Shown: positions 14,409-43,135 of the stretch, piece after piece
How positions within the stretch are numbered: the stretch's first letter is position 1
Layout of the letters: every line of letters begins with the position of its first letter
From: Desulfobacteraceae bacterium
GTDB taxonomy: Bacteria > Desulfobacterota > Desulfobacteria > Desulfobacterales > Desulfobacteraceae
Length of the DNA: 64,000 nucleotides
Direction of reading: 5' to 3'
NCBI GenBank assembly: GCA_033851995.1
Contig: JAWSVI010000003.1
Location: 52,794 to 116,793, forward strand
Program-made: the position numbers and the translations under genes
The notes under the pieces: generated by a model
Database searches by the model: none
Told to the model about the DNA's origin: nothing
What the model saw: only the letters and a program-made list of their open reading frames with translations

Positions 14409-14522
14409 AGCACTCCCCATTAAGCAGACATTACTCCCCAAAAGTATAAATACAACATAATTTCATATTACTAAAATTTTCCTTGACATATGGTTTAATA
14501 TTCTGGAATAAGGAGTGAGTAA

Positions 14523-14681
14523 TTTTCAGGTGCCGCACATAACGGCTGAATAGGGAACCCTGTGAGAGTCAGGGACGGACCCGCCGCTGTAATCGGAGAC
14601 AATTGCTGAATTCATGCCACTGGATAAAACCGGGAAGGCGCAGCCAATTGGATGACCCGAAAGTCAGAAGACCTGCCTGGA
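14523..14681 (+). ncRNA. Cobalamin riboswitch 1
   Basis: CAGGTGC...AATAGGGAA...CCGCCGCTGTAA...GCCACTG...GGGAAGG...AGTCAGAAGACCTGCC conserved B12-element blocks. Confidence 0.95.
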
Positions 14682-14734
14682 TCTATAACAGTTATCTCCC
14701 GGAAAGAGGTAACTGCTCATGTGGATTAAAAACG

Positions 14735-14778
14735 AAATCCCTGATCAATTAAAACGGCATTTGATCAGGGATTTTTTT
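14735..14778 (+). terminator. Intrinsic terminator (expression platform of riboswitch 1)
   Basis: AAATCCCTGATCAA ... TTGATCAGGGATTT stem followed by T-run, upstream of cbiK start. Confidence 0.8.
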
Positions 14779-14796
14779 ATTGCAAAAGGAAAAATG

Positions 14797-15675
14797 ATGA
14801 AAAAATATCAATGGATTACACTAACGTTCTGCATTATTTTCTGCCTGGGCATATCAACTGCCTATGCATCCGGACATGGCCATAGTGCTGAGAAAAAAAC
14901 AGGCATTTTACTAGTTGCTTTTGGTTCCAGTGAAGCATCCGCACAAATTTCTTTTGAAAAGATCGACAAAAAAGTCAAAGCAACCTACCCTGGCATACCT
15001 GTACGCTGGGCGTACACCTCGCATATTATCCGGAACAAACTGGCCAAACAGGGAAAACATCTGGACTCTCCTGAAGTGGCACTTGCTAAAATGATGGATG
15101 AAAAATTTACCCATGTGGCTGTCCAGTCGCTTCACACCATTATTGGCGCTGAGTATGATGATTTAAAAAGAACAGTTAGTGGGTTCAAATTGACTGGTGG
15201 GTTTGAAAAAATTATCCTTGGGTATCCCCTAATGGCCACCCAACATGATATGGAAAAAGTAGTTGATGCCATCATCAGCATAATCCCCAGGGAACGAAAA
15301 AAAAACGAGGCTGTTGTCTTAATGGGTCACGGCACCCACCATCCGGCCAATGCCTTTTACGCAGCTTTAATGTTCCAGCTTCAACTCAAAGATCCCAATA
15401 TTTTTGTGGGTACCGTTGAAGGATACCCGGAAGTGGATGATATCCTCACTCTTTTAAAGAAAAATAATATCAAAAAAGCCTATCTTCTGCCGTTCATGTC
15501 AGTTGCCGGTGACCATGCTAAAAATGATATGGCAGGTGATGAAGATGACTCATGGAAAACGATCTTTACAAAAGCCGGGATTCAATGCATCCCGGTATTG
15601 AAAGGAACTGCAGAATTTGATGAATTTATCGATATCTGGGTAGAGCACATTAAAGCGCCGCTCGCCCATTTCTAA
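14797..15675 (+). CDS. cbiK: Sirohydrochlorin cobaltochelatase, exported (CbiK-periplasmic type)
   Basis: ILLVAFGSS, MGHGTHH, VAGDHAKNDMAG motifs; signal peptide MKKYQWITL...AYA; AAGGA RBS before ATG 14794/14797. Confidence 0.9.
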   Translation: MKKYQWITLTFCIIFCLGISTAYASGHGHSAEKKTGILLVAFGSSEASAQISFEKIDKKVKATYPGIPVRWAYTSHIIRNKLAKQGKHLDSPEVALAKMMDEKFTHVAVQSLHTIIGAEYDDLKRTVSGFKLTGGFEKIILGYPLMATQHDMEKVVDAIISIIPRERKKNEAVVLMGHGTHHPANAFYAALMFQLQLKDPNIFVGTVEGYPEVDDILTLLKKNNIKKAYLLPFMSVAGDHAKNDMAGDEDDSWKTIFTKAGIQCIPVLKGTAEFDEFIDIWVEHIKAPLAHF

Positions 15676-15688
15676 CCAAAAAAAATAG

Positions 15689-15848
15689 CTTTCAGGTGCT
15701 GTAAAAAGCTTAATAGGGAACTCCTGTGTAACTCAGGGACGGGCCCGCCGCTGTAACCGGGGACGAATACTGCAATATACCACTGACCAGATGGTTGGGA
15801 AGGTGCAGATATAAGGATAATCCGGAAAGTCAGAAGACCTGCCTGAAA
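15689..15848 (+). ncRNA. Cobalamin riboswitch 2
   Basis: CAGGTGC...AATAGGGAA...GCCCGCCGCTGTAA...CCACTG...GGGAAGG...AGTCAGAAGACCTGCCTG. Confidence 0.95.
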
Positions 15849-15919
15849 TAATCGTACAAGATCAGTGTTACTCTTCGTGGACAAGGGAGTGGCATATCCA
15901 GTCTGAGGAAAAATCAGGG

Positions 15920-15994: not shown

Positions 15995-17956
15995 ATGAAT
16001 ATAAGCTTAAAGTGGCTAAAACTATATGTAGTATTGGCCTGTCTAATTTTTTCATTGGCTGTTGAGGCAAACGAAATCAGTCAGAAGACAAATGGAGCAA
16101 AGCTGGATGAAGTCGTTGTAACAGCAACACGGACAGATTCTATTTTAGGAAAAATTGGCGGAACTTCGGCAACGGTGATTACTGCACAGGATATTGAAGC
16201 AAAACAACAAACAACGGTTGAGGAAGTTCTTAAAGGGGTGCCGGGCCTCGATATTGTTGCAAATGGAGGACCCGGTACAATGTCGTCCGTCTTTACCAGA
16301 GGCGCCGATTCAAAAAACACACTGATTTTGATTGACGGCATCATGTTCAATGATCCTTCAGGGAGCAACAGAGGGGCCGACCTTGCCAATCTGACCGTTG
16401 ACAATATTGAACGGATTGAAGTTGTCCGGGGACCATTGAGTGTCTTATATGGAAGTAATGCCACAGCGGGTGTCATTAATATCATCACAAAAAAAGGAAA
16501 AGGAAAACCAACTGCTTATGCGGGTGCTGAAGGCGGTTCCTACGGCACTTGGAAAACCTACGGAGGTGTCTCGGGTTCAATTGGAAAATCAAACTACTCT
16601 TTATCAGCCTCAAAAGCTGAAACCGATGGATTTTCCATTGCAAATGATGACAATGATCGCATTCCTCATTCAGGCAATACATCTGAGGATGATGGATGGG
16701 AAAACCTGACCCTGTCTGGTAAAGTCGGATATGAATTCACAAATGATTTTGATATTCAGGCTGTTATCAGATACCTGGATTCAGAAGTGGAAACAGACGA
16801 TTGGGGCCCAGGATACACTGGAGACCGTTTTGACGGATACCCATATACAGCCAATCCCACCGGGACAAAAGAGCAGCGGACGGAAAGTGAACAGTTCTTT
16901 GGAAAGGTAAATCTGCACAACTATTTTTTTGAGCGCTTCTTTGAATCCACCCTGGCCTACCAGATTTCTGATCATGAAAGACAAAGTTATGAAAATGACG
17001 GCAGCCAATCCTATGACTATGAAGGTAAGACAAGAGAAGCTTCATGGCAGGGCACTTTGAACTTCAGTGATATGAACTATTTAACCGCCGGTGCTGCCTA
17101 TTTTGAAGAGGAAATGGAAAGTCAATCCTCCAGCATCATCAATAAAGAAGCCGATACCAAAAGCATCTGGATACAGGACCAGTTCATTTGGGGACAGGGG
17201 TTTGATATAATTGTTGGAATTCGACGTGATGATCATTCAAAATTCGGCAGCAAATCAACCTATCGATTTGCTCCGGCATATACCATCGAAAAAACGAACA
17301 CAACTTTGAAAGCAAGCTACGGAACGGGCTTTCGGGCACCCTCCCTATTTGAACTATACTCTTCCTATGGCAGTGAAACACTTAAACCGGAAGAAAGCAA
17401 AGGCTGGGATATTGGTTTTGAACAAAGTTTTGCCAATGAAAGGGTTAGGTTCGGTGTAAACTATTTTGATATGGTGTTTGACAATCGAATTGGGTTCAAC
17501 ATGACCACATGGTTATATGATCAACTGGAAGGTGACACAAAAGTTAAAGGCGTTGAATCCTTTGTAAGCTGGATGCCTACAGATGACTTGAATTTCACAT
17601 TGAATTATACATATAACGACACGGAAGATCCGAACGGTAATAAGCTGGTACGGCGACCGGAAAATAAGGTTCACCTTAATACCAATTACCGTTTTCTGCA
17701 AAAAGCCATGGTCAATCTTGATTTTTTCTGGGTTGGAGACAGGGAGGCGAATTCAAGTTCAGCAGATATGAACGGAAATTCTGTAGAAACACTGGGCGCC
17801 TATACTGTCGTCAACCTTTCTGCAAGCTATGATGTAACCAACCATATTAAAATATATGGAAATGTCGATAATGTGTTTGACGAAGAGTATGAGGAAGCCT
17901 GGAGTTATGCGACACCTGGCCGTTCTGCATATGTTGGTATGAAATTTACTTACTAA
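15995..17956 (+). CDS. btuB: TonB-dependent outer-membrane receptor, BtuB-like
   Basis: TonB box LDEVVVTATRT, plug IERIEVVRGPLSVLYGS, C-terminal PGRSAYVGMKFTY; under a B12 riboswitch. Confidence 0.85.
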   Translation: MNISLKWLKLYVVLACLIFSLAVEANEISQKTNGAKLDEVVVTATRTDSILGKIGGTSATVITAQDIEAKQQTTVEEVLKGVPGLDIVANGGPGTMSSVFTRGADSKNTLILIDGIMFNDPSGSNRGADLANLTVDNIERIEVVRGPLSVLYGSNATAGVINIITKKGKGKPTAYAGAEGGSYGTWKTYGGVSGSIGKSNYSLSASKAETDGFSIANDDNDRIPHSGNTSEDDGWENLTLSGKVGYEFTNDFDIQAVIRYLDSEVETDDWGPGYTGDRFDGYPYTANPTGTKEQRTESEQFFGKVNLHNYFFERFFESTLAYQISDHERQSYENDGSQSYDYEGKTREASWQGTLNFSDMNYLTAGAAYFEEEMESQSSSIINKEADTKSIWIQDQFIWGQGFDIIVGIRRDDHSKFGSKSTYRFAPAYTIEKTNTTLKASYGTGFRAPSLFELYSSYGSETLKPEESKGWDIGFEQSFANERVRFGVNYFDMVFDNRIGFNMTTWLYDQLEGDTKVKGVESFVSWMPTDDLNFTLNYTYNDTEDPNGNKLVRRPENKVHLNTNYRFLQKAMVNLDFFWVGDREANSSSADMNGNSVETLGAYTVVNLSASYDVTNHIKIYGNVDNVFDEEYEEAWSYATPGRSAYVGMKFTY

Positions 17957-17985: not shown

Positions 17986-19239
17986 ATGGAATTTAAAACA
18001 CTTATAATCGGCCTTTTTTTGTCCACCGCCGCCTTTGCTGTAAAAGCCGGCGGTGGGCTGGCCTATCTTTTTTTACAGACACCGGACAAACGACAAAAGG
18101 CAGTTGCCTCTTTTGGATTCATGGTTGTATATGGACTTGTTTTTCTGCTTGCAGCTCTTATTCTGGCAAAGATCAACCTGACCCGTCATCTTGATCTGCT
18201 GCAGGGATTTTTCAAGAGCGGAATGACGCTCCATTTTCTATTAGCCCTTCTTTTGGCAGTATGGGGCATCAGACTCCTTTTGAAAAACAGACAGGACAAG
18301 CAGGCCACGCAGGCCTGGATTCCACTGCTAATCCCCTGCCCGGTATGTTTCAGTGTAATTCTTTTATCCTGCTCTTTTGTGTCAGCCCTGTATCCTGGTA
18401 GTTTTCTTGTATTTGTGTATCTTTATGCCGGTTTTATCCTGATCAGTCTTACAGTTGCTGCTTTTTTTACCTTTATGATCAGAAAACAAAAAAAAGCCTT
18501 GGCTTTTTTAGGCACATTGATGCTCTATATCGCTGGATACTTTATGTTATCCGTTATTCTGATTCCCCAGTTTGCGGATCTCGAAAGAATTTATAGAATT
18601 TCTCTTATTGAAAAAGGAATAGCCATGCAGATTTTTGCATTATTAAAAACATTTATTTACCTTATTGCATCGTCCCTTTTCGCACCGGTGCTGCTGATTC
18701 TATCCTGCCTGGTTTTATGGATGCTGGCGTATTCCGGCACTTTTTTTATATCCTGGATTCAAAGGCGCAGAATGCAGGTTAAAGCAGGAGAGCTACCGGA
18801 ACTTATCCTTTCCGGGCATACCGATTCCATATTGCCTGGCCCGGTTGCAGTCTTAACAAAAAAGCTTAAAAAAATACAGGCCCAGAAAAACCCTGCCCTT
18901 GTTATTAATCTGCTTCGAGATTCCGAACACAACCTCTGGAAATCATTGGACAGTTTAAAAATGATGATCCGTATTGGGCCGGGACTGGGATTGATCGGCA
19001 CCCTGATTCCTATGGGAACCGGCCTGGCTTCCCTTGGCCAGGGGGATCTTGGTCAACTCAGCCAGGATCTGGTGGTTGCCTTTACCACAACAGTTGTGGG
19101 TATGGCCCTGGGACTTTTGGCCTATTTTTTCTTTACAATTCAACACCGCTGGATAGAACAGGACATAAAAAACATGGAACTGGCTGCAGAACTGCTCTGC
19201 GGAGAACAGGCCCAAACCCGGACAATAAGGGCGGCCTGA
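17986..19239 (+). CDS. DUF2162-type membrane protein fused in frame to a MotA/TolQ/ExbB proton-channel domain
   Basis: N half: AFAVKAG, IPCPVC, multiple TMs (DUF2162-like); C half from M214: GPGLGLIGTLIPM, AFTTTVVG (ExbB/MotA). Confidence 0.8.
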   Translation: MEFKTLIIGLFLSTAAFAVKAGGGLAYLFLQTPDKRQKAVASFGFMVVYGLVFLLAALILAKINLTRHLDLLQGFFKSGMTLHFLLALLLAVWGIRLLLKNRQDKQATQAWIPLLIPCPVCFSVILLSCSFVSALYPGSFLVFVYLYAGFILISLTVAAFFTFMIRKQKKALAFLGTLMLYIAGYFMLSVILIPQFADLERIYRISLIEKGIAMQIFALLKTFIYLIASSLFAPVLLILSCLVLWMLAYSGTFFISWIQRRRMQVKAGELPELILSGHTDSILPGPVAVLTKKLKKIQAQKNPALVINLLRDSEHNLWKSLDSLKMMIRIGPGLGLIGTLIPMGTGLASLGQGDLGQLSQDLVVAFTTTVVGMALGLLAYFFFTIQHRWIEQDIKNMELAAELLCGEQAQTRTIRAA

Positions 19240-19241
19240 TA

Positions 19242-19577
19242 ATGATGTATTTAAAAACAAAGCAGAACCGTGGGAGCGGATTTTCAGACAACGATCCCAT
19301 GTCTGGTGTGGCCAACCTCTTTGACCTTGGTCTGGTTTTTATTGTCGGGCTTTTAATTGCGCTTTTCGGCGCCTATCATCTTGAAGACCTCCTGTCCCAG
19401 GATTCTGAATTAACCATTGTTAAAAAATCTGCTGACGGACAGATTGAGATCATTGAAAAAAAAGGCAGAAAAATCGAGGCCATGAAAGTCTCAAAAGACA
19501 GAGCCAAGGGACGCGGTGAAAGGCTTGGTACAGCCTACAAACTTGAAAACGGTTCCATGATCTATATTCCGGACTAG
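19242..19577 (+). CDS. DUF2149 domain protein (ExbD-like partner)
   Basis: DPMSGVANLFDLGLVF single TM then G.G.RLGTAYKLENGSMIYIPD. Confidence 0.85.
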   Translation: MMYLKTKQNRGSGFSDNDPMSGVANLFDLGLVFIVGLLIALFGAYHLEDLLSQDSELTIVKKSADGQIEIIEKKGRKIEAMKVSKDRAKGRGERLGTAYKLENGSMIYIPD

Positions 19578-19588
19578 GCCAACATAAA

Positions 19589-22500
19589 ATGAAACAGAAC
19601 AAAACGCCTACTATGAAACGATTCACACAAATTCTCACCATCACTGTTTTTGTATTTCTACCAGCTAAACTTCCTGCAGCAGACCTTGTGCTCATGGTTC
19701 TGGACCACAACTCTTATATTGCCCACCTGGCAGTAAACAATCTTGCGCTTTCAAAAAAGATATCATCTGGTATCCGCATTATTACGGCTGATGACGTCAC
19801 ACGGAAGCCAGAACAGATGAAGCAGATGATCGATGATACCCCACTGATTGTGGTTGATGTCATGGGCCGGGAGCTGGAATTTTTTTTAACCGGCAAAATC
19901 GATCTTAAATCCAAAATCATCTATGCTCTGCGCGGCTCCCTGGATGATGAATCCTTAAAGAAAAAAGGATTTCTTTTTGACCCAGCCATATCCGATTATT
20001 ATCGCCATGTAAGTATAAAAAACATACAAAATATGCTGCGTCTTGTCATACATCGCCATATTGACAAAAGCATCCGTTATGACATGATCCAATTACGGCC
20101 TCAGCTCGGCATCTACCATCCTGATGCAGCTATAAGCACGCCAAAGAGTGAGACAGGCATATTCACGGATATCAGCGATTATCTTGAGTGGCAGGCAAAG
20201 CGCCCCGGTTTTGACCCGAACCGTCCGTCAATCGGTTTCTTCTTTTTTTCATCCTTTCTCACAAAAGGCCAGCAGGAACCCGTGGACACCATTATCCGTC
20301 GTCTTGAAACTGAAAATTTTAATGTGATTCCCTGTTTTGGGCGGGAAAAAGATATTATCAAAAACTATCTTATCGATAATAATGGTAAAACCCGGGTCGA
20401 TATGGTCCTGGCATTTTCCTTTAAATTTTATAACGCACTCACACCCGAACTTGGAGAATTGCTAAAACAGCTTGATGTGCCTGTGTTCAGTGCAATCAGT
20501 ATTTACAAAGATACCATTGAGCAGTGGCGTAAAAGCCCTGTCGGCATTGACAACCTCGAAGTGGCCTGGTCTCTGGCAGTCCCGGAGATTTCAGGTCTTA
20601 CCGAGCCCACGGTCCTTGCTGCAAAAGAAAAAATCGTTGACAGGCAAACTGGAAAAGCCTTTTTTGTCAGCCGCCAGGTGACTGAAAACATGGACCGCCT
20701 GATACCACGGCTTAAAAAATGGATTATCCTGCAAAACAAACCCAATAAAAATAAAAAAATTGCCCTTTTATTTTACAACCATCACCAGGGCAAACAGAAT
20801 ATCGGGGCCTCTTACCTCAATGTCTTCAGAAGTATTGAAAAAATTGTTCATTCACTGTCGAAAAACGGATATGCTACCGGAGCACCACTAACCGAGATGG
20901 ATATCAAGGAACTGATACTGGCTTCTGCCAGGAATATTGGCTCCTGGGCACCTGGTGAACTTGACAGAATACTGGTAAAAGGACAGGTAATCCGTCTGCC
21001 CCTGGCCACATACAGACAATGGTTTGAGGAGCTTCCAAACAATTTTAAAAACCAAGTTATTCAACAGTGGGGGGAACCTGAAACCGCCGGAATTATGGTA
21101 ACGGATAACGACCTGATCATTCCGGCGGTTCAGGCTAACAATCTGATCATGCTTCCTGAACCAGCCCGCGGCTGGGGTGATGATCCTATGAAGCTGATGC
21201 ATGACACCACACTGTATCCCCATCACCAGTATCTTGCCGTATACTTATGGCTTTCAAAGACATTTAAGGCTGATGCCATGATTCATCTGGGTACCCATTC
21301 GACCTATGAATGGACACCTGGAAAACAGGCCGGGCTCTCGCCGTCCTGCGCACCGGAAATTCTGATCACGGACATCCCCAATATTTATCCCTATATCGTA
21401 GATAATCTGGGTGAAGGCATCCAGGCAAAACGCAGGGGGCGAGGCGCCATGGTCAGCCACCTCACACCGGTTCTGAGAAAAGCGGATATAACACAGGAAT
21501 ACAGCCGTATGGCTGAACTGGTCAATGAAATTGAGAGGGGGAAATCGCGGGGCAGCATCACTGTGAAGGAAAAAGTAAAAGAGTTGTTAGCCATTGCCGA
21601 ATCCACCGGCATTCTCACTGACTTAAAAGACAGTGCCCAAAACGACCATGATATCTACCATGCCACTGAAGAAAATTCATCCCATGTCCATTCAGATACC
21701 GAAGCCCGGAGCCCTGCTGCCCCAAAAAGCAAATCTGCTGCACAAAAAACGGTTCCGGTAATTGATCGGGCTACGGCAGAGACCATCCATCTTCTGGGCC
21801 ACTACCTTGAAGATATCAAATCAAGCATGATCCCATATGGCATGCACACTTTCGGGAAATCTCCAAAGCCTGAAGCATTAAAGGAAATGTCTGATGCAAT
21901 TCTAAAATGGAACCCTGAAATAAAATCAGATCAAAAGCCTGAAAAAGTATCACAAGATATTGCCCAATGCGGAGATAACGAAATCAACAGTCTGCTCAAA
22001 GGTCTTGATGGGCGGTATATTCACCCGGGCCAGGGCAATGACCCAATCCGAAACCCCAAAGCCCTTCCCACAGGCAGAAATTTTTACGGGTTCAATCCCG
22101 GCAAACTGCCGACACCTGCGGCATGGGAATTGGGCAAAAAGGCAGCCCAGCAGATTATTGACAATCACATCATCAAGCACGGCGCCTTTCCACAAAAAAT
22201 TGCTGTAGTCCTATGGGCAACAGAAACGCTTCGAAACGAAGGAGTGAACGAATCCACCATTATGTACCTGATCGGCACAAGGCCCAAATGGTCTAAAACA
22301 GGCCGGGTCCTGGGTATAGAACTGATAAAAGGGGAAAAACTGAACCGACCGCGTATCGATGTCATGATCAATGCGTCCGGTCTTTACCGGGATCTGTTTC
22401 CGGAAAAGATGCTCTATCTTGACCGCGCTATCCGTATGGCTGTTAAACAGACTGATGTGGAAAACCTCATCGCACGCCATAATGCCCAAATTAAAACCCG

Positions 22501-23686
22501 CCTGATCCAACAGGGGATGTCACCTGAAAAAGCAGACGAAATGTCACGGTTCCGTATCTTTTCCGAACCGCCCGGGGCCTATGGAAACGGTGTGGGTGAC
22601 ATGGCTTCAGGCTCTTCCAAATGGGACAACCCGGACCAGGTAGTAGATGTGTATGAAAACCGGATGGGATTTGTATTTGGCCAGGGTAAAAATGGCAAAC
22701 AATGGGGCCTTGCTGCTAAAAAGGTCATGAAAGCACAGCTCTCCCAGGTGGATGTGGCAGTCCACTCCAGGTCCTCCAACGTATACGGGCTTTTAGATAA
22801 TGATGACATGTTCCAGTACCTGGGCGGACTTTCAATGGCAGTTCGAAAAGAATCAGGAAACGCCCCGGAAACCCTGATTACTCAGCAGCAGCACAAGGGC
22901 CGTGTCAAAGTAGAAGATATGGGCAAAACACTGGGTCGGGAAATGCGTGCCCGGTATCTTAACCCTAAATGGATAGAAGGCATGAAAACGGAAGATTATG
23001 CCGGGGCCAATGCCATGTCCAATTTTGTGGAGTACCTCTGGGGCTGGAACCTGACAACCCCTGAAAAAGTGGGTGCAGATAAATGGCAGCAGACCTATGA
23101 GGTTTATGTTAAAGACAAATACGGGCTTGAAATGAAAGAATTCTTTTCCAAAGCATCCCCATGGGCTTTTCAGTCCATAACCGGCCGGATGCTGGAAACC
23201 CACCGCAAAGGGTATTGGGAAGCAGATCAAAAGCAGTTGAAAACCCTGGCAGCTGAATATGCCAAAAGCGTTATTGCCAAAGGCATTGCCTGCTGTGATC
23301 ATACCTGCAACAATCCCATGCTTAACCAGATGGTGGCCTCTATTGTTTCCATCCCTGGTGTCCTGAGTCCTGAACTGGTGGAAAAATTCAGAATAGCGGT
23401 AGAACAGATGGCACAAAAGCCGCTTGATCAACAGGTAGAAGAGCGCAAACAGCTTATTGAGAAGCTTGCTGCTCCTGCACCTGAGCAGCCCAAACCCGTA
23501 AAATCAGAAACAACAGAAGCCAAAGATCCTGAAATGGTAGAGGGCTATAAAATGGAAAAAATAGAAAAAAAGGACGACACCACCCAAATGACTTCATCCG
23601 GTATTGAATGGATGGCTGTTCTGGCCGTACTCGGCATAATAGGAATAGTCAGTTATGGTGCGCGAAAAAAACATGGCCGTCTTTAA
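19589..23686 (+). CDS. cobN: CobN/magnesium-chelatase H family protein with export signal and C-terminal membrane anchor (HmuS/BtuS-like)
   Basis: HLGTHSTYEWTPGK, YPYIVDNLGEGIQAKRRG, LPTGRNFY, RPRIDV, SGLYRDLFP, NPKWIEGM motifs; hydrophobic N-terminus and C-terminal TM followed by RKKHGR; start may be 19613. Confidence 0.88.
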   Translation: MKQNKTPTMKRFTQILTITVFVFLPAKLPAADLVLMVLDHNSYIAHLAVNNLALSKKISSGIRIITADDVTRKPEQMKQMIDDTPLIVVDVMGRELEFFLTGKIDLKSKIIYALRGSLDDESLKKKGFLFDPAISDYYRHVSIKNIQNMLRLVIHRHIDKSIRYDMIQLRPQLGIYHPDAAISTPKSETGIFTDISDYLEWQAKRPGFDPNRPSIGFFFFSSFLTKGQQEPVDTIIRRLETENFNVIPCFGREKDIIKNYLIDNNGKTRVDMVLAFSFKFYNALTPELGELLKQLDVPVFSAISIYKDTIEQWRKSPVGIDNLEVAWSLAVPEISGLTEPTVLAAKEKIVDRQTGKAFFVSRQVTENMDRLIPRLKKWIILQNKPNKNKKIALLFYNHHQGKQNIGASYLNVFRSIEKIVHSLSKNGYATGAPLTEMDIKELILASARNIGSWAPGELDRILVKGQVIRLPLATYRQWFEELPNNFKNQVIQQWGEPETAGIMVTDNDLIIPAVQANNLIMLPEPARGWGDDPMKLMHDTTLYPHHQYLAVYLWLSKTFKADAMIHLGTHSTYEWTPGKQAGLSPSCAPEILITDIPNIYPYIVDNLGEGIQAKRRGRGAMVSHLTPVLRKADITQEYSRMAELVNEIERGKSRGSITVKEKVKELLAIAESTGILTDLKDSAQNDHDIYHATEENSSHVHSDTEARSPAAPKSKSAAQKTVPVIDRATAETIHLLGHYLEDIKSSMIPYGMHTFGKSPKPEALKEMSDAILKWNPEIKSDQKPEKVSQDIAQCGDNEINSLLKGLDGRYIHPGQGNDPIRNPKALPTGRNFYGFNPGKLPTPAAWELGKKAAQQIIDNHIIKHGAFPQKIAVVLWATETLRNEGVNESTIMYLIGTRPKWSKTGRVLGIELIKGEKLNRPRIDVMINASGLYRDLFPEKMLYLDRAIRMAVKQTDVENLIARHNAQIKTRLIQQGMSPEKADEMSRFRIFSEPPGAYGNGVGDMASGSSKWDNPDQVVDVYENRMGFVFGQGKNGKQWGLAAKKVMKAQLSQVDVAVHSRSSNVYGLLDNDDMFQYLGGLSMAVRKESGNAPETLITQQQHKGRVKVEDMGKTLGREMRARYLNPKWIEGMKTEDYAGANAMSNFVEYLWGWNLTTPEKVGADKWQQTYEVYVKDKYGLEMKEFFSKASPWAFQSITGRMLETHRKGYWEADQKQLKTLAAEYAKSVIAKGIACCDHTCNNPMLNQMVASIVSIPGVLSPELVEKFRIAVEQMAQKPLDQQVEERKQLIEKLAAPAPEQPKPVKSETTEAKDPEMVEGYKMEKIEKKDDTTQMTSSGIEWMAVLAVLGIIGIVSYGARKKHGRL

Positions 23687-23723
23687 TTTTTGGGCCAGCC
23701 GGAATTTGAATAGGAAAACCAAT

Positions 23724-24167
23724 ATGAAAATTACAAAAACCCTTTTAATGATTACCGGAATTATCCTGCTTACCTCACTACAAAGTATGGCCCACGGAAC
23801 AGGCAGTGATCATACCCATACTCAAAACGAGAACGGCATTGAATCCGCCAAAATCTGGCTCAATCTGATTGATACCCGAAAATACAATGTCTCCTGGCAG
23901 ACAGCAGCACCTGTTTTCAAAACTTCAATAACAGCACTTCAATGGGAAAAGGCCATCACAAATATGAGAAATCCACTGGGGAATCTTATCGAGCGAAACC
24001 TCTTTCACGATCAATACACAACAACTCTGCCGGGGATGCCGGATGGAGAATATATCATCCTGCGATTTGTTACCAAATACAAAAACAAACAAAGTGCCGT
24101 GGAAACCGTGACCCTGATGAAAGATCAAACTGCCAACTGGCGGGTTGCAGGGTACTTTATAAAATAA
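23724..24167 (+). CDS. DUF4019 domain exported protein with His-rich N-terminus
   Basis: Signal peptide, AKIWLNLID, LPGMPDGEY, AVETVT, WRVAGYFI; RBS AGGA before ATG 23724. Confidence 0.8.
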   Translation: MKITKTLLMITGIILLTSLQSMAHGTGSDHTHTQNENGIESAKIWLNLIDTRKYNVSWQTAAPVFKTSITALQWEKAITNMRNPLGNLIERNLFHDQYTTTLPGMPDGEYIILRFVTKYKNKQSAVETVTLMKDQTANWRVAGYFIK

Positions 24168-24173
24168 TTTTGC

Positions 24174-25046
24174 ATGCCTTCTGTTCTCTTGAAATTCCTC
24201 CTCCTGATCTGTTTACCGGTGATCGGCAGTCTTAACCCTAATCTGGTGGGGGTTTGGGCTGCTGATCATGCCATGTTCAGCGATGAAATGCTGCGTATTG
24301 AATTTCTGACAATGGAAAAGCACCATGACGGACAGGTTTCTCAGACCTTTGCCGTCTATCCGCCAGAGCGGGCAGCAACAACTGTTTCCATCCTCTTCCA
24401 AGAAAACAAAAAATCCATGGTTTACAAAGCCGTCATCAAGAACAACACCTTTACTATTTTTGTAAATAAACCTTCCCGTATCCGGCTTTTTGCAATTGTA
24501 AAAGCCAGGGAAACCACCCATGTACTCCATACCAACATAGTGCTGTTCGGCAATTCCCGGATACCGGTTCAAAGGATACCGGCAGCATCAGAAGGTAGGA
24601 TTTTAAAAACCATTCCCCATATTTCCCTGATATCTGCAGACACATATTACTGGCACCAGACAGGTATCCCCTTAACATTTACCCTGGGCACAAATTTTCA
24701 ACCAGCACTTTTTAATTCAGCACTACCAGCACTCAACGTTATTGAAAATAGTCATATCAAACCTGTGACAGCAGATAAAGAACACCCTTTTCATTTTATT
24801 TATACACCACCACTTGATGAAAAACTGAGACAATCCGGATACACTGCCTTCCGCCAGGACACATTGTTCACAGAAATCTCTCATTGGAAAAACAGATACC
24901 ACCTGACCTATGCCCTGAAGCTCCACCGCTCACGCCATGCCTATGACAATCATGGGGCTGGAGCGGCTGTCCTGGGTTCCGGTATATTCATTTTCACAGG
25001 CATGATCCTGTATAAAAGGAGAACCAGACAATGGTGGAACGAATAA
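24174..25046 (+). CDS. Hypothetical exported protein with C-terminal membrane anchor
   Basis: N-terminal hydrophobic leader, C-terminal TM (AAVLGSGIFIFTGMILY) then KRRTR; operon-embedded. Confidence 0.75.
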   Translation: MPSVLLKFLLLICLPVIGSLNPNLVGVWAADHAMFSDEMLRIEFLTMEKHHDGQVSQTFAVYPPERAATTVSILFQENKKSMVYKAVIKNNTFTIFVNKPSRIRLFAIVKARETTHVLHTNIVLFGNSRIPVQRIPAASEGRILKTIPHISLISADTYYWHQTGIPLTFTLGTNFQPALFNSALPALNVIENSHIKPVTADKEHPFHFIYTPPLDEKLRQSGYTAFRQDTLFTEISHWKNRYHLTYALKLHRSRHAYDNHGAGAAVLGSGIFIFTGMILYKRRTRQWWNE

Positions 25047-25978
25047 GGCTGATCTGTCAGCACTTTTCTTTTATCCTGTTCATGTATGGCGGACGCATCG
25101 GAATTCATCTGGGCAGTTCGCTGCCCTGTTTTTCATGCCCATTTGTCCAGGGATGCGCCGGTCACTGTTACCTGATGGTCCTGCAGCGCAGCCATGTCGG
25201 ATTTCAGACCGCTTTTGACATCATGTTTTCATCCGGCATCCTCCATATATTCTGGCCCTTTGCCGTATTCCTGCTTTTTTTCATCCCCCTGTCCAAGCTG
25301 TGGTGCGCATGGCTATGCCCCTTTTGTCTTTTTCAAGACTGGATCTCAATGATCCGTAAAAAATTGGGAATAAGACCAAGTATCTGGATCAGGGAAACAA
25401 GAGACCGCGTGAAACCTGTAAAATATATTTTACTGGCATTGCTGATCATCATCCCCATTGGCATTGCCAATTTCGGCCTGCACTCGGACTGGGGCCTGCC
25501 TTTCTGTCAAATCTGTCCTGCAAGGCCCATCCTTCCGCTGTTCATAGGAAAACTTGATTATTTTCACATCGACATGACCAACAGCGTGACCATCGGTTTT
25601 ACATTAACCGCAATGATCCTGACAGCAGGATTTTTAGTTGGTATGTTTTTCAAAGAACGGTTTTTCTGCATTTTCTGCCCCATGCTGGCCCTGATGCACC
25701 TTTTCAGACGACTGAGCCCTGTAAGGTTTGAAAAAAATATTCATACCTGTACCGGCTGTGGCAACTGTGAGCGCATGTGCCCGGTGGATATCTATGATGT
25801 TCATCTTGAAAAAGAACAAAAAAATGTACTCACGGAAGACTGCATGGGCTGCATGACCTGCGCAGAGTCCTGCCCGGTTGATGATGCCCTGAGCTTCAGT
25901 ATAGGATTTAAAAAATTCCGGTTACCGCTGTTTTCGTCCTCAAACAGCTATCTGGCCAAAAAATGGAGTAACAAATGA
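25031..25978 (+). CDS. Membrane 4Fe-4S binding protein (NapH/MauN-like)
   Basis: WCAWLCPF, FCQICPA, FCIFCPM CxxxCP motifs plus CTGCGNCERMCP and CMGCMTCAESCP. Confidence 0.88.
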   Translation: MVERIRLICQHFSFILFMYGGRIGIHLGSSLPCFSCPFVQGCAGHCYLMVLQRSHVGFQTAFDIMFSSGILHIFWPFAVFLLFFIPLSKLWCAWLCPFCLFQDWISMIRKKLGIRPSIWIRETRDRVKPVKYILLALLIIIPIGIANFGLHSDWGLPFCQICPARPILPLFIGKLDYFHIDMTNSVTIGFTLTAMILTAGFLVGMFFKERFFCIFCPMLALMHLFRRLSPVRFEKNIHTCTGCGNCERMCPVDIYDVHLEKEQKNVLTEDCMGCMTCAESCPVDDALSFSIGFKKFRLPLFSSSNSYLAKKWSNK

Positions 25979-27192
25979 AACCTGCAAATCCCAGGCTCAC
26001 CCGGCTGAAAAATAAAACCCTCTCCCTGATGAAAAAAGAGATAGAAGATCTGGTTCAGGTAATCAAGAAACGGCCCGATTACATACCCGCGCTGGAAACG
26101 TTTATCAAAACTCTTATCCAGGCTCAATCGCCGCAAGAGTTTATTCAGAGTACTGACAAAAAAGTAATCTTGTCACTATGTATCCAGGCCCCTCTGGAAC
26201 TGTTCCATGCTGCCGGGGTACAGCCATTCAAACTGGCATGCGGTTCCCATATATCCGGAAACATGGCACCGCTTCATTTGCCAGCCCTGACCTGCCCCAT
26301 GATCAAATCCATATCCGGGCTCTTAAAACTCGGCAGCGTAGCCGGTGATTTTGTGATCCCCACAACCTGTGACTGGGTGGTCAAATTCAGTGAACTGACA
26401 AAGCTCCACGAAAGCACCAATATCCATTTTATGGAACTGCCCCATTTAAGGGAAAACGAGAGATCATCAAAAAGATGGCTTAATGAAATCAAGGTGTTTA
26501 AAAACTGGCTGGAAAAAACATCTGCCTGCAGGATAACACCCCGGACCCTTGTAAAATCGATCAATATATACGCCCAGGCATATGAACTTTACTCCACAAT
26601 GATCAAACTGCGGCGCAAACAAAAAGTTCCAAGCCTCCATTTTGCCCTGATTATCAATGCCATGCCCTACCTGGAGATTGAAACATGGATGGCGAATACA
26701 GCAGCTTATGTCCTTGATCTAAAAGGGCCTGACAAAAAAAAAGAACCTATATTTTTAACCGGAAGCCCCATTGTGTTTCCAAACTATAAAATGCTTACCC
26801 TCATAGAAAACGCCCAAATGGCAGTCACAGCAGATGACCTGTGCACCATGGAACGCACCTTTCCCGGTGCTGTCGCCTGGCGGGACAAATCAGAGTATGC
26901 ACTCTTAAACGCGCTTGCACAGCGAAACCACAAGGCCTGTATCTGCCCGACATTTGCTGACAACCATCGAAGACTGAACAGTATCCTCAGCACTTTGGAA
27001 CAGCACCATATTAGAGGCATCATCTTTCATGTCCTAAAGGGATGCCACCCCTATGATATGGAATCCGGGATACTGGAAACCCAGCTCAAAAAAAGAGGCT
27101 ATCGGTTCCTGAAAATTGAAACCGACTATGTAAAAGAGGATGAGCAAAACATTGTCACACGCCTGGAAGCCTTTAGACGGACCCTGAAATAA
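25975..27192 (+). CDS. 2-hydroxyacyl-CoA dehydratase family Fe-S protein (double-cubane protein-like)
   Basis: LCIQAPLEL, TCPMIKS, PTTCD, TGSP, DDLCT, ACICP, GCHPY, KIETDY, TRLEAF motifs. Confidence 0.85.
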   Translation: MKPANPRLTRLKNKTLSLMKKEIEDLVQVIKKRPDYIPALETFIKTLIQAQSPQEFIQSTDKKVILSLCIQAPLELFHAAGVQPFKLACGSHISGNMAPLHLPALTCPMIKSISGLLKLGSVAGDFVIPTTCDWVVKFSELTKLHESTNIHFMELPHLRENERSSKRWLNEIKVFKNWLEKTSACRITPRTLVKSINIYAQAYELYSTMIKLRRKQKVPSLHFALIINAMPYLEIETWMANTAAYVLDLKGPDKKKEPIFLTGSPIVFPNYKMLTLIENAQMAVTADDLCTMERTFPGAVAWRDKSEYALLNALAQRNHKACICPTFADNHRRLNSILSTLEQHHIRGIIFHVLKGCHPYDMESGILETQLKKRGYRFLKIETDYVKEDEQNIVTRLEAFRRTLK

Positions 27193-27212
27193 AATGTAAA
27201 GGAGTAAACCAA

Positions 27213-27962
27213 ATGAAAATCGGTATCGATGTCGGTAGTACAGGCATCAAAGTAGTTTTTATGAAAGAAACTGCCCTGACATGGAAAAAGGTTATTCCGA
27301 CCAAGCCCGGTCAGTCAACTCTTGTCCGGAATTTGATCAATGAAGGCCTTAAAGCGTGCCGTACCAGCCAGGATGATATTGAAAAAATCTGTGTAACTGG
27401 GTACGGAAGGAACCTGATTGATTCTCCAGACACCATTGTAGATGAAATCTCAGCCAATGCCGCCGGTATCCATTTTCTCTCCAATGGAAAAGCCCGCACC
27501 CTGATTAATATCGGTGGTCAGGATGTTAAAATAATCAAACTGGATGATCAGGGCCATGTCACAGATTTCAGAATGAATGATAAATGTGCAGCCGGGACCG
27601 GCCGGTTTTTCGAAATTGCCGCTAACATTCTGGACACTCCACTGGAAAATTTTCATATTGAAGACATGGTGGAGGCTGTGAATATAAATTCCACCTGTGC
27701 AGTGTTTGCAGAATCTGAAATTGTTTCTCTCCTTGCCAAAGACATCAATAAACGCAGTATAATCAAAGGGATCAACAATGCTGTGGCAAAACGTATTGCC
27801 AATCTGGCCGGCAGCGGCCTGCTTGAAGAAGACATCTATATTGACGGCGGACCCGGTAAAAACCAAGGGCTGGTCGAAAGCCTGGAAGACGCCTTGATGT
27901 GTGATGTTAAGGTAACCAAGGCTCCCCAGTTTACGGTTGCACTTGGTGCGTTACTTGCCTGA
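27213..27962 (+). CDS. ASKHA-type ATP-dependent activase (HgdC/BcrA-like)
   Basis: GIDVGST, TGYGR, IGGQDVK, MNDKCAAGTGRF, STCAVFAESE. Confidence 0.92.
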   Translation: MKIGIDVGSTGIKVVFMKETALTWKKVIPTKPGQSTLVRNLINEGLKACRTSQDDIEKICVTGYGRNLIDSPDTIVDEISANAAGIHFLSNGKARTLINIGGQDVKIIKLDDQGHVTDFRMNDKCAAGTGRFFEIAANILDTPLENFHIEDMVEAVNINSTCAVFAESEIVSLLAKDINKRSIIKGINNAVAKRIANLAGSGLLEEDIYIDGGPGKNQGLVESLEDALMCDVKVTKAPQFTVALGALLA

Positions 27963-28470
27963 CCCAGTCCGGGACTCTGAAACCTTCCAGTTTATCACGA
28001 GGCTTAATCACAGGTTTTATATCGATAACAGGGGTGTTGTTAAAAGCTTCAAGCCCTTTTACATGCAGGAGGCAGCCGTCTCTTTTAACCAGTTCAACTG
28101 TGGTAATCAAGATCGGATTGGGTCTTGCCGGGCTGCGGGTGGCAAATATTCCCTGCCAGGGCAAATCTTTCCAACCTCTTGGGTGTACTTTTTTCTTTTT
28201 CCGCTGCGCTTTATCCAGAAGATGGGGCCAAAAAAGAACAACGATATGAGAAAAAGACGATATCCCGTCGAGCAATGCTTCATATTCAGGACGAATCCTT
28301 ATGATACTAAGCGTTTCACGGATTTGGTGCTGATAGTCTTTGAGCGCTTTTTCACGCCGGGCCGGATCAACTGATTTTATTGAATCAAGATTTCGTTCGG
28401 TAATTTTATTTTTCACATATCCAACTTGCTGTATTGAAAAAATTTCTATATCAGAAGTTTCGTTTTCCAT
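27931..28470 (-). CDS. tsaA: TrmO/TsaA-like SAM-binding protein
   Basis: GISSFSHIVVLFW, VHPRG, GIFATRSPARPNPI, TPVIDIKP. Confidence 0.85.
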   Translation of the reverse strand: MENETSDIEIFSIQQVGYVKNKITERNLDSIKSVDPARREKALKDYQHQIRETLSIIRIRPEYEALLDGISSFSHIVVLFWPHLLDKAQRKKKKVHPRGWKDLPWQGIFATRSPARPNPILITTVELVKRDGCLLHVKGLEAFNNTPVIDIKPVIKPRDKLEGFRVPDWVRQVTHQVQP

Positions 28471-35439: not shown

Positions 35440-36873
35440 CTAATGTCTAACCGCCCAGGTTTTAAAAATCATATTCACAAAAGCGACTGACTTTTCTTCC
35501 ATTCTGGAAATCTGGGTTTCCACACGACGACTGAGCAGGGTATGGGCCAGCATGATGGGGATCGCCACAGACAAACCCAGCATGGTAGTGACAAGGGCTT
35601 CGGAAATACCACCGGACATCATCCTGGGGTCACCAGTCCCATAATAGGTAATCACATGAAACGTATTAATCATACCAGTTACAGTGCCCAGGAGACCCAG
35701 AAGCGGGGCTATTGCAGCCAGCATTCCCAAAGTAGATAAAAACCGTTCAATTGCCGGGATCTCTCCAAGGATAGCCTCCTGGAGCGCATTTTCTATTTCA
35801 GGCCGGGTCCGGTCTTTCAATGCTAAGGCTGTCAATAGTATTTTAGGAATCAGTTTTTCCTTTTTATTCTCAAGAAGCGTTTTGCATCCTTCCCAGTCAT
35901 CTGCAACAATTTTCACCCTCAACATGGTCATCAATTTCTCAGCATTAACGCGGCGTTTGGAAAAAAAGATAAACCGCTCGATCAGGATAAGGACGGCAAA
36001 TCCCAGAATAGCCAAAATCGGCCACACAATGGCACCTCCTTTGGGCACCTGTTTTGTCAGGCTGAGCTGGTGGGCCAATTGACGGATGGCACCGCCTTTG
36101 GAAATATCCATATAAACACTGTCCTGTTGCCCTTTTAGATATGCGGATATATTATCCTCGACTCTTGCCGATGGCAGCCGGGATAAAGCAAAGTAGCGCT
36201 GGCTGGTGTCTGAATACAACAAAAATCCAGTTTCATTGTCCAGGGTATAAATGCCGGTAAAATTACCCAGCAGCAGGAGTTGACCCATGCGCTCTTTTCC
36301 TTTCCGGTCCACCATGAGGCCTTTTGTAACGGTTACCTGCCCGGATGATCGGATTTCAGAAAAAAGGTGTTCAGCAAGTTTTCCAACATCATCCATAGTG
36401 GGAAATTTCTGTCCCAGGAGAATGGGCTCTAAAAACTCATGCTCCCCGGGTGTCAGCCCGGACTGAAGGTTTTGTTTGAGAATTGATTTCAAATCCTTGG
36501 CACTGGTTTGCATCACTCCCCGGAATTCCCGGTTTACGGCGGCAGTTTCCTCAAGGTCCTTCCGGAGCTGTTTCTCTTCTGTTTTCAGAGTATTTATCTC
36601 AACTGAAATACGTTTATTATCTGCTTTCAGGACTTTAACGGCAGACTTTAATTTGGCAATGGATTTTTGCAAACGGGTTTTATCTCTAACAACCTCCTGG
36701 TATTGGTCCTCTGCCTGTCTTTTTGCATCCTGGATCTCTGCTTGAGCTTTTTTTATCAGGTCCTGTTTTTTCTGCTCAACACGTTGATGTGCAACACGCA
36801 TGTCCTGGGCAGCGGCAGGACATGACAAAAAAAAGACACTGATGAAAAAAAACAGGTAGATATATGCCTTCAT
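35440..36873 (-). CDS. Long MotA/TolQ/ExbB protein with periplasmic coiled-coil N-terminus (TtpC-like)
   Basis: Signal peptide, coiled coil, C-terminal APLLGLLGTVTGMI and GISEALVTT. Confidence 0.85.
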   Translation of the reverse strand: MKAYIYLFFFISVFFLSCPAAAQDMRVAHQRVEQKKQDLIKKAQAEIQDAKRQAEDQYQEVVRDKTRLQKSIAKLKSAVKVLKADNKRISVEINTLKTEEKQLRKDLEETAAVNREFRGVMQTSAKDLKSILKQNLQSGLTPGEHEFLEPILLGQKFPTMDDVGKLAEHLFSEIRSSGQVTVTKGLMVDRKGKERMGQLLLLGNFTGIYTLDNETGFLLYSDTSQRYFALSRLPSARVEDNISAYLKGQQDSVYMDISKGGAIRQLAHQLSLTKQVPKGGAIVWPILAILGFAVLILIERFIFFSKRRVNAEKLMTMLRVKIVADDWEGCKTLLENKKEKLIPKILLTALALKDRTRPEIENALQEAILGEIPAIERFLSTLGMLAAIAPLLGLLGTVTGMINTFHVITYYGTGDPRMMSGGISEALVTTMLGLSVAIPIMLAHTLLSRRVETQISRMEEKSVAFVNMIFKTWAVRH

Positions 36874-42718: not shown

Positions 42719-42780
42719 ATTCCCTTTTCTTTATCCGAAATTTTAAAATCCCTTTTTTCCACGAAGGGTATTTCATATGG

Positions 42781-42947: not shown

Positions 42948-43058
42948 ACCATTGCTTTATTCGTAAAAACAAAAAAAGTCAATATTAAAAAATTTCATTC
43001 TGGACAAATCAAAGTTATGCCGATGATCTCGAACCAGTCAAATCAGGTCTGATAGATA

Positions 43059-43087: not shown

Positions 43088-43135
43088 TTTTTAACATTGT
43101 TCCAAAAACAAATCACCCAGACGAAAGAGAGCCTC

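Follow-up and report, generated by a model that had tools for sequence, protein, structure and literature searches.

A NapH-like membrane iron-sulfur protein encoded with a DCCP-like, ATP-driven reductase pair in cobalamin-linked gene loci

Introduction

Which partners does a membrane iron-sulfur (Fe-S) protein serve when its gene lies between that of a periplasmic protein and those of an ATP-driven reductase, behind a run of genes for cobalamin (B12) acquisition? This question is raised by the open reading frame (ORF) at 25031-25978 on the plus strand of a 64,000-nucleotide (nt) stretch of DNA from Desulfobacteraceae bacterium (contig JAWSVI010000003.1, positions 52,794 to 116,793; the whole stretch is called the window). 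A preliminary description of the window had taken the product, a NapH-like protein, for an electron conduit between the cytoplasmic ATP-driven reductase encoded downstream and the chemistry of a periplasmic CobN-like enzyme encoded upstream. The reductase belongs to the HGD-D family and resembles the double-cubane cluster protein (DCCP) of Carboxydothermus hydrogenoformans. The analyses presented here indicate that the NapH-like protein probably wires this DCCP-like reductase to the membrane during cobalt or corrinoid acquisition, and that the CobN-like enzyme is a much less constant companion.

Results

Conservation of a four-gene module

The NapH-like gene is the second of four plus-strand genes:

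24174-25046, + strand: U290, an anchored DUF4198-like periplasmic protein, first gene of the conserved four-gene module
25031-25978, + strand: NapH-like Fe-S protein with four transmembrane (TM) segments, 315 amino acids (aa)
25975-27192, + strand: DCCP-like HGD-D reductase, single subunit (Pfam HGD-D, E 2e-63)
27213-27962, + strand: ASKHA "archerase" activase, an ATP-driven electron donor (TIGR00241 CoA_E_activ, 234 bits against a cut-off of 125; Pfam BcrAD_BadFG, E 8e-48)

The module spans 24174-27962 in tight order. As the preliminary description had it, the NapH-like ORF overlaps both neighbours, by 16 nt with U290 and by 4 nt (ATGA) with the DCCP-like ORF, and a gap of 20 nt then precedes the activase gene. 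The ORF is a genuine gene; an AAGGAG Shine-Dalgarno sequence stands about 10 nt 5' of its start at 25031. A cobalamin riboswitch lies upstream on the same strand (15677-15860).

The gene neighbourhood was compared by tblastn and ORF clustering in 80 loci taken from contigs of one genome per species; Sporomusa ovata (L037) and the cultured Desulfobacteraceae species Desulfospira joergensenii (L006) are among the carriers. In 79 of the loci the contig extends beyond the NapH-like gene, and in 75 of these the DCCP-like gene stands directly 3' of it; in two of the remaining four the DCCP-like gene lies 4-5 kb downstream, and in the other two it was not resolved at the expected place. The activase was present in 71 of the 80 loci, with the misses falling mostly at contig ends. 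On the other side, the U290 family was found upstream in 50 clustered loci (49 of the 80 fetched, plus the window), and in 48 of these 49 the U290 stop codon falls between -22 and +6 nt relative to the NapH-like start. The TonB-dependent receptor family of the window recurred in 44 clustered loci. A CobN-like orthologue, defined by at least 45% identity and a position within 10 kb of the NapH-like gene, was present in only 12 of the 80.

A covariance model (R1) built from the three riboswitches of the window placed a riboswitch 5' of the NapH-like gene, on the same strand, in 48 of the 80 loci. Of these, 23 stand immediately ahead of U290, 0.9-1.5 kb upstream, and most of the others precede a receptor gene. 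When seven loci with no R1 match were rechecked with Rfam, six had no riboswitch inside the fetched range, while the seventh (L040) carried an AdoCbl riboswitch, which brings the count to at least 49 of 80. The recurrent neighbours were CbiZ, CbiB, CobD, CobQ, CbiA, CobT, BtuR (7 loci), MeaB, and NrdD with its activase, together with genes of BtuFCD-like ABC transporters and of ExbBD-TonB. The BtuR/CobA adenosyltransferase gene stands directly upstream of U290 in L039 and directly upstream of the NapH-like gene in L045, where no U290 ORF was called. NrdD and radical-SAM activase genes occur just upstream of the module in L049, L032, L060, and L063, with MeaB also present in L049.

A second sample consisted of 121 genomes of the same order as the genome of the window. 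The NapH-like gene was found in 8 of them, the CobN-like gene in 16, and both in 4, and the two genes were adjacent only in the genome of the window; in the other three genomes with both they lie on different contigs. The CobN-like gene occurred in 4 of the 8 genomes with the NapH-like gene vs 12 of the 113 without it, a comparison that is descriptive only, as the genomes are related. Twelve of the 16 CobN-like-positive genomes had no NapH-like gene.

Because of the gene order, riboswitch, and CobN-like counts over the 80 loci, the tie of the NapH-like gene to the ATP-driven reductase pair is strongly supported, and the link to CobN-like chemistry is lineage-specific at best. Given this distribution, the CobN-like link cannot be what keeps the NapH-like protein conserved; U290 is the steadier outer partner. 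The co-occurrence analysis that the preliminary description had proposed, run on both samples, therefore bore out its tie to the reductase pair and not its link to CobN-like chemistry as a general rule. Occurrence apart from both modules in related genomes had been named as evidence that would overturn its interpretation; the NapH-like gene does occur apart from the CobN-like gene, but effectively never without the reductase. Overall, the observation made in that description is partly confirmed and its interpretation partly supported.

Topology and cysteine motifs of the NapH-like protein

An AlphaFold2 (AF2) model made from a 104-sequence alignment (pLDDT 80.6, pTM 0.74) placed helices at residues 2-23, 70-95, 121-147, and 185-207. 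The mean net charge over the 104 homologues, which share at least 50% identity, was +1.6 for the N-terminus, +4.8 for loop 2, and +5.7 for the C-terminal part, vs -0.2 for loop 1 and -0.8 for loop 3. This positive-inside pattern predicts four TM helices with both termini in the cytoplasm and loops 1 and 3 outside; of the four to five TM segments counted previously, four were retained and a fifth was not. The predicted topology agrees with that of E. coli NapH, which Brondijk et al. reportedly established by experiment in 2004.

The protein has 20 Cys residues, which are distributed as follows:

25127-25168, + strand: Cys cluster of predicted outer loop 1, C33-x2-C36-P ... C42 ... C46
25304-25321, + strand: C92-x3-C96-P97 at the cytoplasmic end of TM2, the canonical first NapH CX3CP motif, aligned with CSWVCP of E. 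coli NapH
25505-25519, + strand: C159-x2-C162-P163 in predicted outer loop 3, not present in E. coli NapH
25667-25681, + strand: C213-x2-C216-P217 at the cytoplasmic end of TM4, equivalent to the second NapH CX3CP motif, aligned with CGHICP of E. coli NapH
25742-25882, + strand: cytoplasmic 2x[4Fe-4S] ferredoxin domain, residues 238-284 (Pfam Fer4_10, Fer4_7, Fer4_9)

Seventeen of the 20 Cys are invariant among the 104 homologues and C42 is nearly so, while C9 and C99 vary; because of this invariance, the Cys features are not due to chance. Four Cys-x2/3-Cys-Pro motifs, comprising eight invariant Cys, stand one behind each TM helix, and the invariant C46 and nearly invariant C42 complete the set. 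The N-terminal cluster was thereby recovered as first described, with the full spacing C33-F-S-C36-P-x5-C42-x3-C46. The "several CxxxCP motifs" of the same description hold as Cys-Pro motifs, but not in their spacing: the membrane part has one Cx3CP and three CxxCP, and each of the remaining two Cx3CP strings forms the end of a ferredoxin motif. Six Cys (33, 36, 42, 46, 159, 162) lie in the two predicted outer loops.

The two ferredoxin motifs noted earlier are complete (CxxCxxCxxxCP, residues 240-251 and 271-282), and Pfam and structural alignment agree on them. VIA-align superposed residues 228-311 on 2x[4Fe-4S] ferredoxins with Z of about 4-5, and a profile search of the sequences in the Protein Data Bank (PDB) matched the ferredoxin domain to polyferredoxins and PsaC. 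No solved structure covering the membrane part was found, since the PDB profile search returned matches to the ferredoxin domain only and a wide VIA-align search gave ferredoxin matches with Z up to 5.2. Foldseek against the PDB returned nothing at E <= 0.001 for the model of the whole protein; the membrane part was not folded alone, so no new fold is claimed.

Family placement

The assignment to the NapH family of membrane Fe-S proteins was upheld. The protein matched Fer4_5 (PF12801) in two stretches with 39.9 bits against a cut-off of 22, and Fer4_10 with 37.6 against 25.5; with Fer4_5 and a dicluster ferredoxin domain, it belongs to the Fer4_5 (COG0348) membrane polyferredoxins as defined by Pfam. 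A search of the whole genome likewise gave two Fer4_5 stretches in this ORF. Its alignment with E. coli NapH spans the full length (24% identity, E 5e-9), and the ferredoxin motifs of the two proteins align. As in NapH, there are four TM helices with Cys-Pro motifs behind TM2 and TM4, although the spacing in the second motif is 2 and not 3, and a C-terminal domain for two [4Fe-4S] clusters. In the same full-length alignment, E. coli NapH had no Cys at the positions of C33, C36, C42, C46, C159, and C162, and its loop 3 is about 20 aa shorter. The scores against the NapH equivalog NF007013 (74.8 bits, cut-off 234) and the NapH/MauN model TIGR02163 (69.8 bits, cut-off 213.05) were below threshold, and Pfam and NCBIfam annotation of the operon genes and of the adjacent minus-strand operon showed no NapA, NapG, or other Nap proteins. 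Judged by these sequence comparisons, the protein is not a NapH orthologue. It is instead a member of a tightly conserved branch of about 315 aa within the NapH/Fer4_5 family, with homologues at 50-82% identity in Desulfobacterota, Negativicutes (Sporomusa), Spirochaetota, Omnitrophota, Synergistaceae, Dehalococcoidales, and other groups. An exhaustive search of 1.84 billion cluster representatives returned only 40 clusters at E <= 1e-30.

Related families were also considered. No FMN_bind or ApbE match was found by Pfam in the NapH-like protein or in the nine other operon proteins; the NapH-like protein opens directly with TM1, and thus has no N-terminal domain for flavin mononucleotide (FMN) of the NosR/NirI/PceC kind. 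Fer4_18 and FixG_C, which mark the CcoG/FixG/RdxA proteins, were absent from the 11 Pfam families matched at E <= 0.01.

The Cys pattern was surveyed in 73 full-length representatives of the wider family (28-47% identity). The inner four Cys were kept in 70 of them. Both outer pairs (C36/C46 and C159/C162) were present in 55, neither was present in 6, including E. coli NapH, and 11 were mixed, whereas C33 and C42 occurred in addition in only 5 of the 73. On the counts of 55 vs 5, the N-terminal cluster is partly a trait of a wide Fer4_5 clade (C36, C46) and partly specific to the subfamily (C33, C42).

Two fused relatives of about 590-600 aa were considered as carriers of a U290-like N-terminus; this was rejected, as hhalign gave a probability below 1% against the U290 profile, and Pfam recognized no domain in their N-terminal parts.

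U290, the periplasmic partner

U290 begins with a signal peptide and ends with a TM helix and a basic tail; in its AF2 model (pLDDT 89.7), the anchor helix comes after two beta-sandwich domains. In the Foldseek list, the top TM-scores were those of Zcp (9mhm_B), a DUF4198 protein (TMq 0.36 / TMt 0.43), PF10670 was matched by 2 of 43 family members with a best E of 4.8e-5, and an atlas lead to DUF4198 was obtained at 0.85. U290 is accordingly taken as a distant DUF4198-like protein, and as periplasmic on the evidence of its signal peptide and anchor. Positions G53, Q162, D215, L218, and R252 are nearly invariant and G263 is invariant. Zcp is a periplasmic metal-capture protein (PMC12663993), and secreted DUF4198 proteins accompany PepSY-like transmembrane reductases (bioRxiv 10.1101/2021.01.07.425746). 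In the most distant NapH-like branch (40-44% identity; L068 at 2817-3617, L070, L077, L078, L080), the place of U290 is taken by a protein of about 400 aa that matches no Pfam family, and a bona fide DUF4198 gene lies nearby in L068, L070, L077, and L078 (PF10670, E 1e-28 in L068).

The downstream reductase pair

The HGD-D protein scored 207.7 bits against the double_cubane model NF040772, below the cut-off of 350. Its best PDB matches were the structures of C. hydrogenoformans DCCP, 7YYL and 6ENO (E 2e-36, compared to E 4e-16 for HadC), and its Cys residues 69, 107, 132, 290, 324, and 357 align to Cys of DCCP. The genome of the window encodes seven HGD-D paralogues and three Fer4_5 proteins, and this is the only HGD-D/Fer4_5 pair whose genes are adjacent. 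A search for longer fused forms yielded a single NapH-like::HGD-D protein, the metagenomic P0121 (634 aa), in which the order of the two parts is the one expected for a cytoplasmic C-terminus.

Discussion

Proposed mechanism

We give about even chances to the NapH-like protein being the membrane electron-transfer subunit of a B12-linked module formed by U290, the NapH-like protein, the DCCP-like reductase, and the activase. The NapH-like gene is coupled in translation to U290 upstream and to the reductase pair downstream, and the module lies inside B12-repressed loci for corrinoid uptake and salvage. The predicted topology and the conservation of the Cys make an export of electrons to the periplasm through the NapH-like protein plausible. 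The activase would be reduced by a cytoplasmic donor, and the energy of ATP hydrolysis would bring the electron to low potential on the DCCP-like protein. Through its ferredoxin domain, the NapH-like protein would dock on the DCCP-like/activase pair, much as NapH docks NapF, and electrons would then travel by way of a first Cys centre at the inner face (C92, C96, C213, C216) to a second one at the outer face, opposite U290 (C36, C46, C159, C162, plus C33 and C42 in the subfamily). There, cobalt or a corrinoid that the receptor brings in would be reduced from Co(III) to Co(II)/Co(I), or in an equivalent step, which would let the cobalt or corrinoid be released, remodelled, or imported. The minority of lineages with an exported CobN-like enzyme, that of the window included, could supply this enzyme with electrons through the same outlet as well. 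The most specific form of this proposal, in which ATP-energised electrons of very low potential are exported through up to four Cys-ligated centres and reduce periplasmic cobalt or corrinoid beside U290, is put forward only tentatively; the electrons might then be used for ligand removal, for remodelling by an exported CbiZ, or for de-chelation by the CobN-like enzyme or the exported CbiK.

An outward conduit would explain why a periplasmic protein is an obligate partner, and it fits the published proposal that NapH-like modules carry electrons across the membrane through Fe-S centres (bioRxiv 10.1101/2021.01.07.425746). NapH requires its first Cys motif to interact with the cytoplasmic NapF, and the Cys-Pro motifs of the membrane module shared by NapH, NosR, and PceC have no assigned function (PMC5928378). 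Several points weigh against electron export. The double-cubane cluster of the DCCP that has been characterised reduces the substrate itself and is not a relay (PMC7317905), so that, by analogy, electrons could run towards the DCCP-like protein and not away from it. NosR is reported to contain only 8 Fe per protein, which its two ferredoxin clusters alone account for, and a thiol/disulfide role of its Cys is favoured for this reason (PMC5928378). It would be unusual for a Sec-inserted protein to have an Fe-S centre assembled at its outer face, and the U290 family alignment has no conserved set of Cys, His, or Met ligands. The fusion P0121 stops about 100 residues before the full DCCP end, may be an assembly, frameshift, or indel artefact, and lends weak support.

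Alternative explanations

Electrons might also move in the opposite direction: the NapH-like protein would collect them from menaquinol or a periplasmic donor, its ferredoxin domain would hand them to the activase/DCCP-like pair, and the pair would convert cob(II) in the cytoplasm to cob(I), to be adenosylated by BtuR/CobA during salvage, with U290 in a purely structural or substrate-delivery role. Menaquinol has a potential of about -75 mV, and its oxidation by the [4Fe-4S] cluster of an archerase would be strongly uphill. Such an inward supply would also leave unexplained the six conserved outer-loop Cys and the near-obligate, translationally coupled periplasmic U290, and archerases are normally served by soluble ferredoxin or flavodoxin (PMC7317905). 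It agrees, on the other hand, with the view of NapH as a quinol dehydrogenase (PMC5928378), with the behaviour of DCCP as a terminal reductase in vitro, and with the precedent of the RACE activators for ATP-driven Co(II)-to-Co(I) reduction (PMC7317905). The BtuR gene present in seven loci, directly upstream of U290 in one of them, and the frequent neighbour CbiZ (PF01955, adenosylcobinamide amidohydrolase by name) point the same way. A survey of the UbiA family in five module-bearing genomes gave no discrimination on the quinol question, because the control matched all 14 reference genomes. Altogether, we regard inward supply as rather unlikely, and as the strongest of the alternatives.

The direct conduit to the CobN-like (de)chelatase proposed in the preliminary description, which might reduce the metal of a bound metallo-tetrapyrrole before its removal, draws on the single riboswitch-led operon that holds all the genes in the window, on the signal peptide and C-terminal anchor of the CobN-like protein, and on the co-occurrence above background among the (related) genomes of the order, a descriptive comparison. 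In addition, HmuS needs a reductant for removal of haem iron (NADH in vitro) and is drawn as periplasmic, where NADH would be lacking (PMC12583661), and for this reason the conduit may hold in the lineage of the window. The distribution is set against it: an orthologue lies near the module in 12 of the 80 loci only, three of the four genomes with both genes have them on different contigs, three quarters of the CobN-like-positive genomes (12/16) have no NapH-like gene, and the hmu operon of Bacteroidota, as described, consists of HmuY, R, S, T, U, and V without such a module (PMC12583661). On these counts and the content of the hmu operon, the CobN-like enzyme is at most an additional, lineage-specific client, and a conduit dedicated to it is quite improbable as the function of the NapH-like protein. 

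A scarcely better prospect, still improbable, is direct metal handling, in which the Cys-x2/3-Cys-Pro motifs on both faces bind and reduce a metal ion such as cobalt and U290 is the metal-capture partner. CcoG, a Fer4_5-type cupric reductase, would be the model, but Fer4_18 and FixG_C are not among the Pfam matches. The neighbouring genes encode corrinoid ABC importers and salvage enzymes rather than cobalt transporters of the CbiMNQ type, although control by a B12 riboswitch would be consistent with cobalt supply. The DUF4198-like nature of U290, given that Zcp captures periplasmic metal (PMC12663993), and the bona fide DUF4198 gene alongside the distant NapH-like branch favour a metal-capture role, and the lack of a conserved metal-ligand set in U290 speaks against it. 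Finally, some homologues are annotated as "ferredoxin-type protein NapH" or "polyferredoxin", and weak NCBIfam matches to NapH were obtained. It is nevertheless very improbable that the product is just another NapH, acting as quinol dehydrogenase for a periplasmic nitrate reductase, or some generic polyferredoxin unrelated in function to its neighbours, considering the scores of 74.8 vs 234 (equivalog) and 69.8 vs 213 (NapH/MauN subfamily), the operon genes without NapA or NapG, and the order with the DCCP-like gene and activase conserved across phyla.

Comparison with known systems

NapH of E. coli and Wolinella succinogenes, a part of the NapGH quinol dehydrogenase, shares with the protein described here its four TM helices, the Cys-Pro motifs that follow TM2 and TM4, and the 2x[4Fe-4S] domain at the cytoplasmic C-terminus. 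Its partners are the cytoplasmic NapF and the periplasmic NapG, while here these places are taken by the DCCP-like/activase pair and U290. The systems differ in the second inner motif (Cx3CP in NapH, CxxCP here), in the six extra outer Cys and the loop 3 longer by about 20 aa found here, in U290 having no Fe-S motifs, in the B12 riboswitches that often precede the module, and in the lack of nap genes nearby. NosR, NirI, and PceC (RdhC), which are flavinylated, have in common with the NapH-like protein a membrane module of four TM helices and two Cys motifs, and are proposed to supply an enzyme in the periplasm with electrons taken from the membrane or the cytoplasm (PMC5928378; bioRxiv 10.1101/2021.01.07.425746); PceC, moreover, serves a corrinoid enzyme. 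They possess an N-terminal periplasmic FMN-binding domain, which is missing here, and PceC has no ferredoxin domain, whereas the NapH-like protein has one and is partnered by an ATP-driven reductase.

The closest relatives of the downstream pair are DCCP and DCCP-R of C. hydrogenoformans (6ENO, 7YYL), studied as a soluble system (PMC7317905), whereas the pair of the window comes with genes for a membrane Fe-S protein of its own and for a periplasmic protein. The RACE activators also spend ATP on the Co(II)/Co(I) couple of a corrinoid through an ASKHA ATPase, but carry a [2Fe-2S] domain, lack a membrane subunit, and work in the cytoplasm on corrinoid bound to protein (PMC7317905). The PepSY-like reductase/DUF4198 systems and Zcp likewise combine electron transfer at the inner membrane with a periplasmic DUF4198-type protein, often beside genes for TonB-dependent uptake. 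Their membrane component is unrelated and they include a flavinylated DUF2271 protein, absent here; B12 riboswitch control and an ATP-driven low-potential donor set the present module apart from them. The CobN-like, ExbB-like, and DUF2149 genes of the window resemble HmuS, T, U, and V of the Bacteroidota hmu operon, which as described has no NapH-like or DCCP genes (PMC12583661), while a cobalamin riboswitch leads the operon here.

What is distinctive of the NapH-like protein is its enlarged outer Cys set, its DCCP-type ATP-driven reductase partner, and its position mostly in cobalamin-riboswitch loci. Literature searches returned no paper describing a DCCP-like/NapH-like/U290 module, and a paper on corrinoid starvation in Dehalobacter does not mention it. 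The physiological function of DCCPs is stated to be unknown (PMC7317905). If ATP-energised export is correct, it would be the first physiological role for these proteins and the first ATP-driven reducing power delivered outside the cytoplasm. As a membrane partner is nearly always encoded with the DCCP-like protein, in B12-riboswitch corrinoid loci of many anaerobic phyla, the role of DCCP is now testable. The module may also help to explain the conserved Cys-Pro motifs of the NapH/NosR/PceC proteins: a second set of four outer-loop Cys, present in most relatives of the wider family and not in E. coli NapH, suggests a redox path through the membrane. It may in addition close a gap in the chemistry of haem and corrinoids by providing a physiological source of the electrons that HmuS-like enzymes would use for (de)chelation in the periplasm.

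Genomic context in the window

Two cobalamin riboswitches head the plus-strand run of ten genes. Among sequencing runs listed as containing the sequence there was no RNA data set; the only one was a plastisphere metagenome, probably its source. The elements upstream of the four-gene module, in the order exported CbiK, BtuB-like receptor, DUF2162+ExbB-like, DUF2149, CobN-like, and DUF4019, are:

14511-14694, + strand: cobalamin riboswitch 1, leader of the exported CbiK gene (Rfam RF00174, 110.2 bits, E 1e-26)
14719-15675, + strand: CbiK-type class II chelatase with a signal-peptide-like N-terminal extension, predicted periplasmic (Pfam CbiK, E 4e-77, residues 62-313)
15677-15860, + strand: cobalamin riboswitch 2, leader of the receptor-to-activase operon (Rfam RF00174, 108.1 bits, E 3.9e-26)
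15995-17956, + strand: TonB-dependent outer-membrane receptor, BtuB-like (Pfam Plug and TonB_dep_Rec_b-barrel; TIGR01779 TonB-B12, E 1.7e-100, below its cut-off)
17986-19239, + strand: DUF2162 and MotA/ExbB-like membrane protein (Pfam)
19242-19577, + strand: DUF2149 single-pass membrane protein, partner of the ExbB-like protein (Pfam DUF2149, E 2e-31)
19589-23686, + strand: CobN/HmuS-like class I (de)chelatase, 1365 aa, predicted periplasmic (Pfam CobN-Mg_chel, 1045 bits; signal-like N-terminus and C-terminal TM anchor)
23655-24167, + strand: DUF4019 protein, apparently exported (Pfam DUF4019, E 7.5e-36; internal signal-like segment)

In the product of 14719-15675, a hydrophobic N-terminal segment precedes the CbiK domain. 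The DUF2162+ExbB-like family was found in 13 clustered loci, mostly with a CobN-like gene; it tracks the CobN-like gene rather than the NapH-like gene. The DUF4019 family occurred in three clustered loci, with weak tblastn matches in a few more. The DUF4019 ORF (23655-24167, + strand) overlaps the 3' end of the CobN-like gene by 32 nt, and its signal-peptide-like segment starts at an internal Met about 23 codons in, so that the true start may be downstream.

A third cobalamin riboswitch (42768-42959, - strand) heads a minus-strand operon that encodes a BtuF-CbiZ fusion, two BtuFCD-like ABC sets, DUF3450 proteins, ExbB/ExbD/TonB, and a cytoplasmic CbiK. The first gene behind this riboswitch (40576-42615, - strand) encodes 679 aa with a BtuF-like periplasmic-binding domain and a CbiZ domain; if exported, this fusion would remodel corrinoids outside the cytoplasm and could be a client for periplasmic reducing power. 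At 35440-37733 (- strand), a DUF3450 protein and a DUF3450-ExbB fusion are encoded ahead of ExbB/ExbD/TonB and a TPR protein in this B12-regulated uptake operon, which looks like an extended Ton system dedicated to corrinoid uptake. A TrmO-like ORF (27931-28470, - strand) is convergent on the activase gene, with a 3' overlap of 32 nt, and a single ORF of 896 aa (43097-45787, + strand) combines GcvT aminomethyltransferase and SHMT domains.

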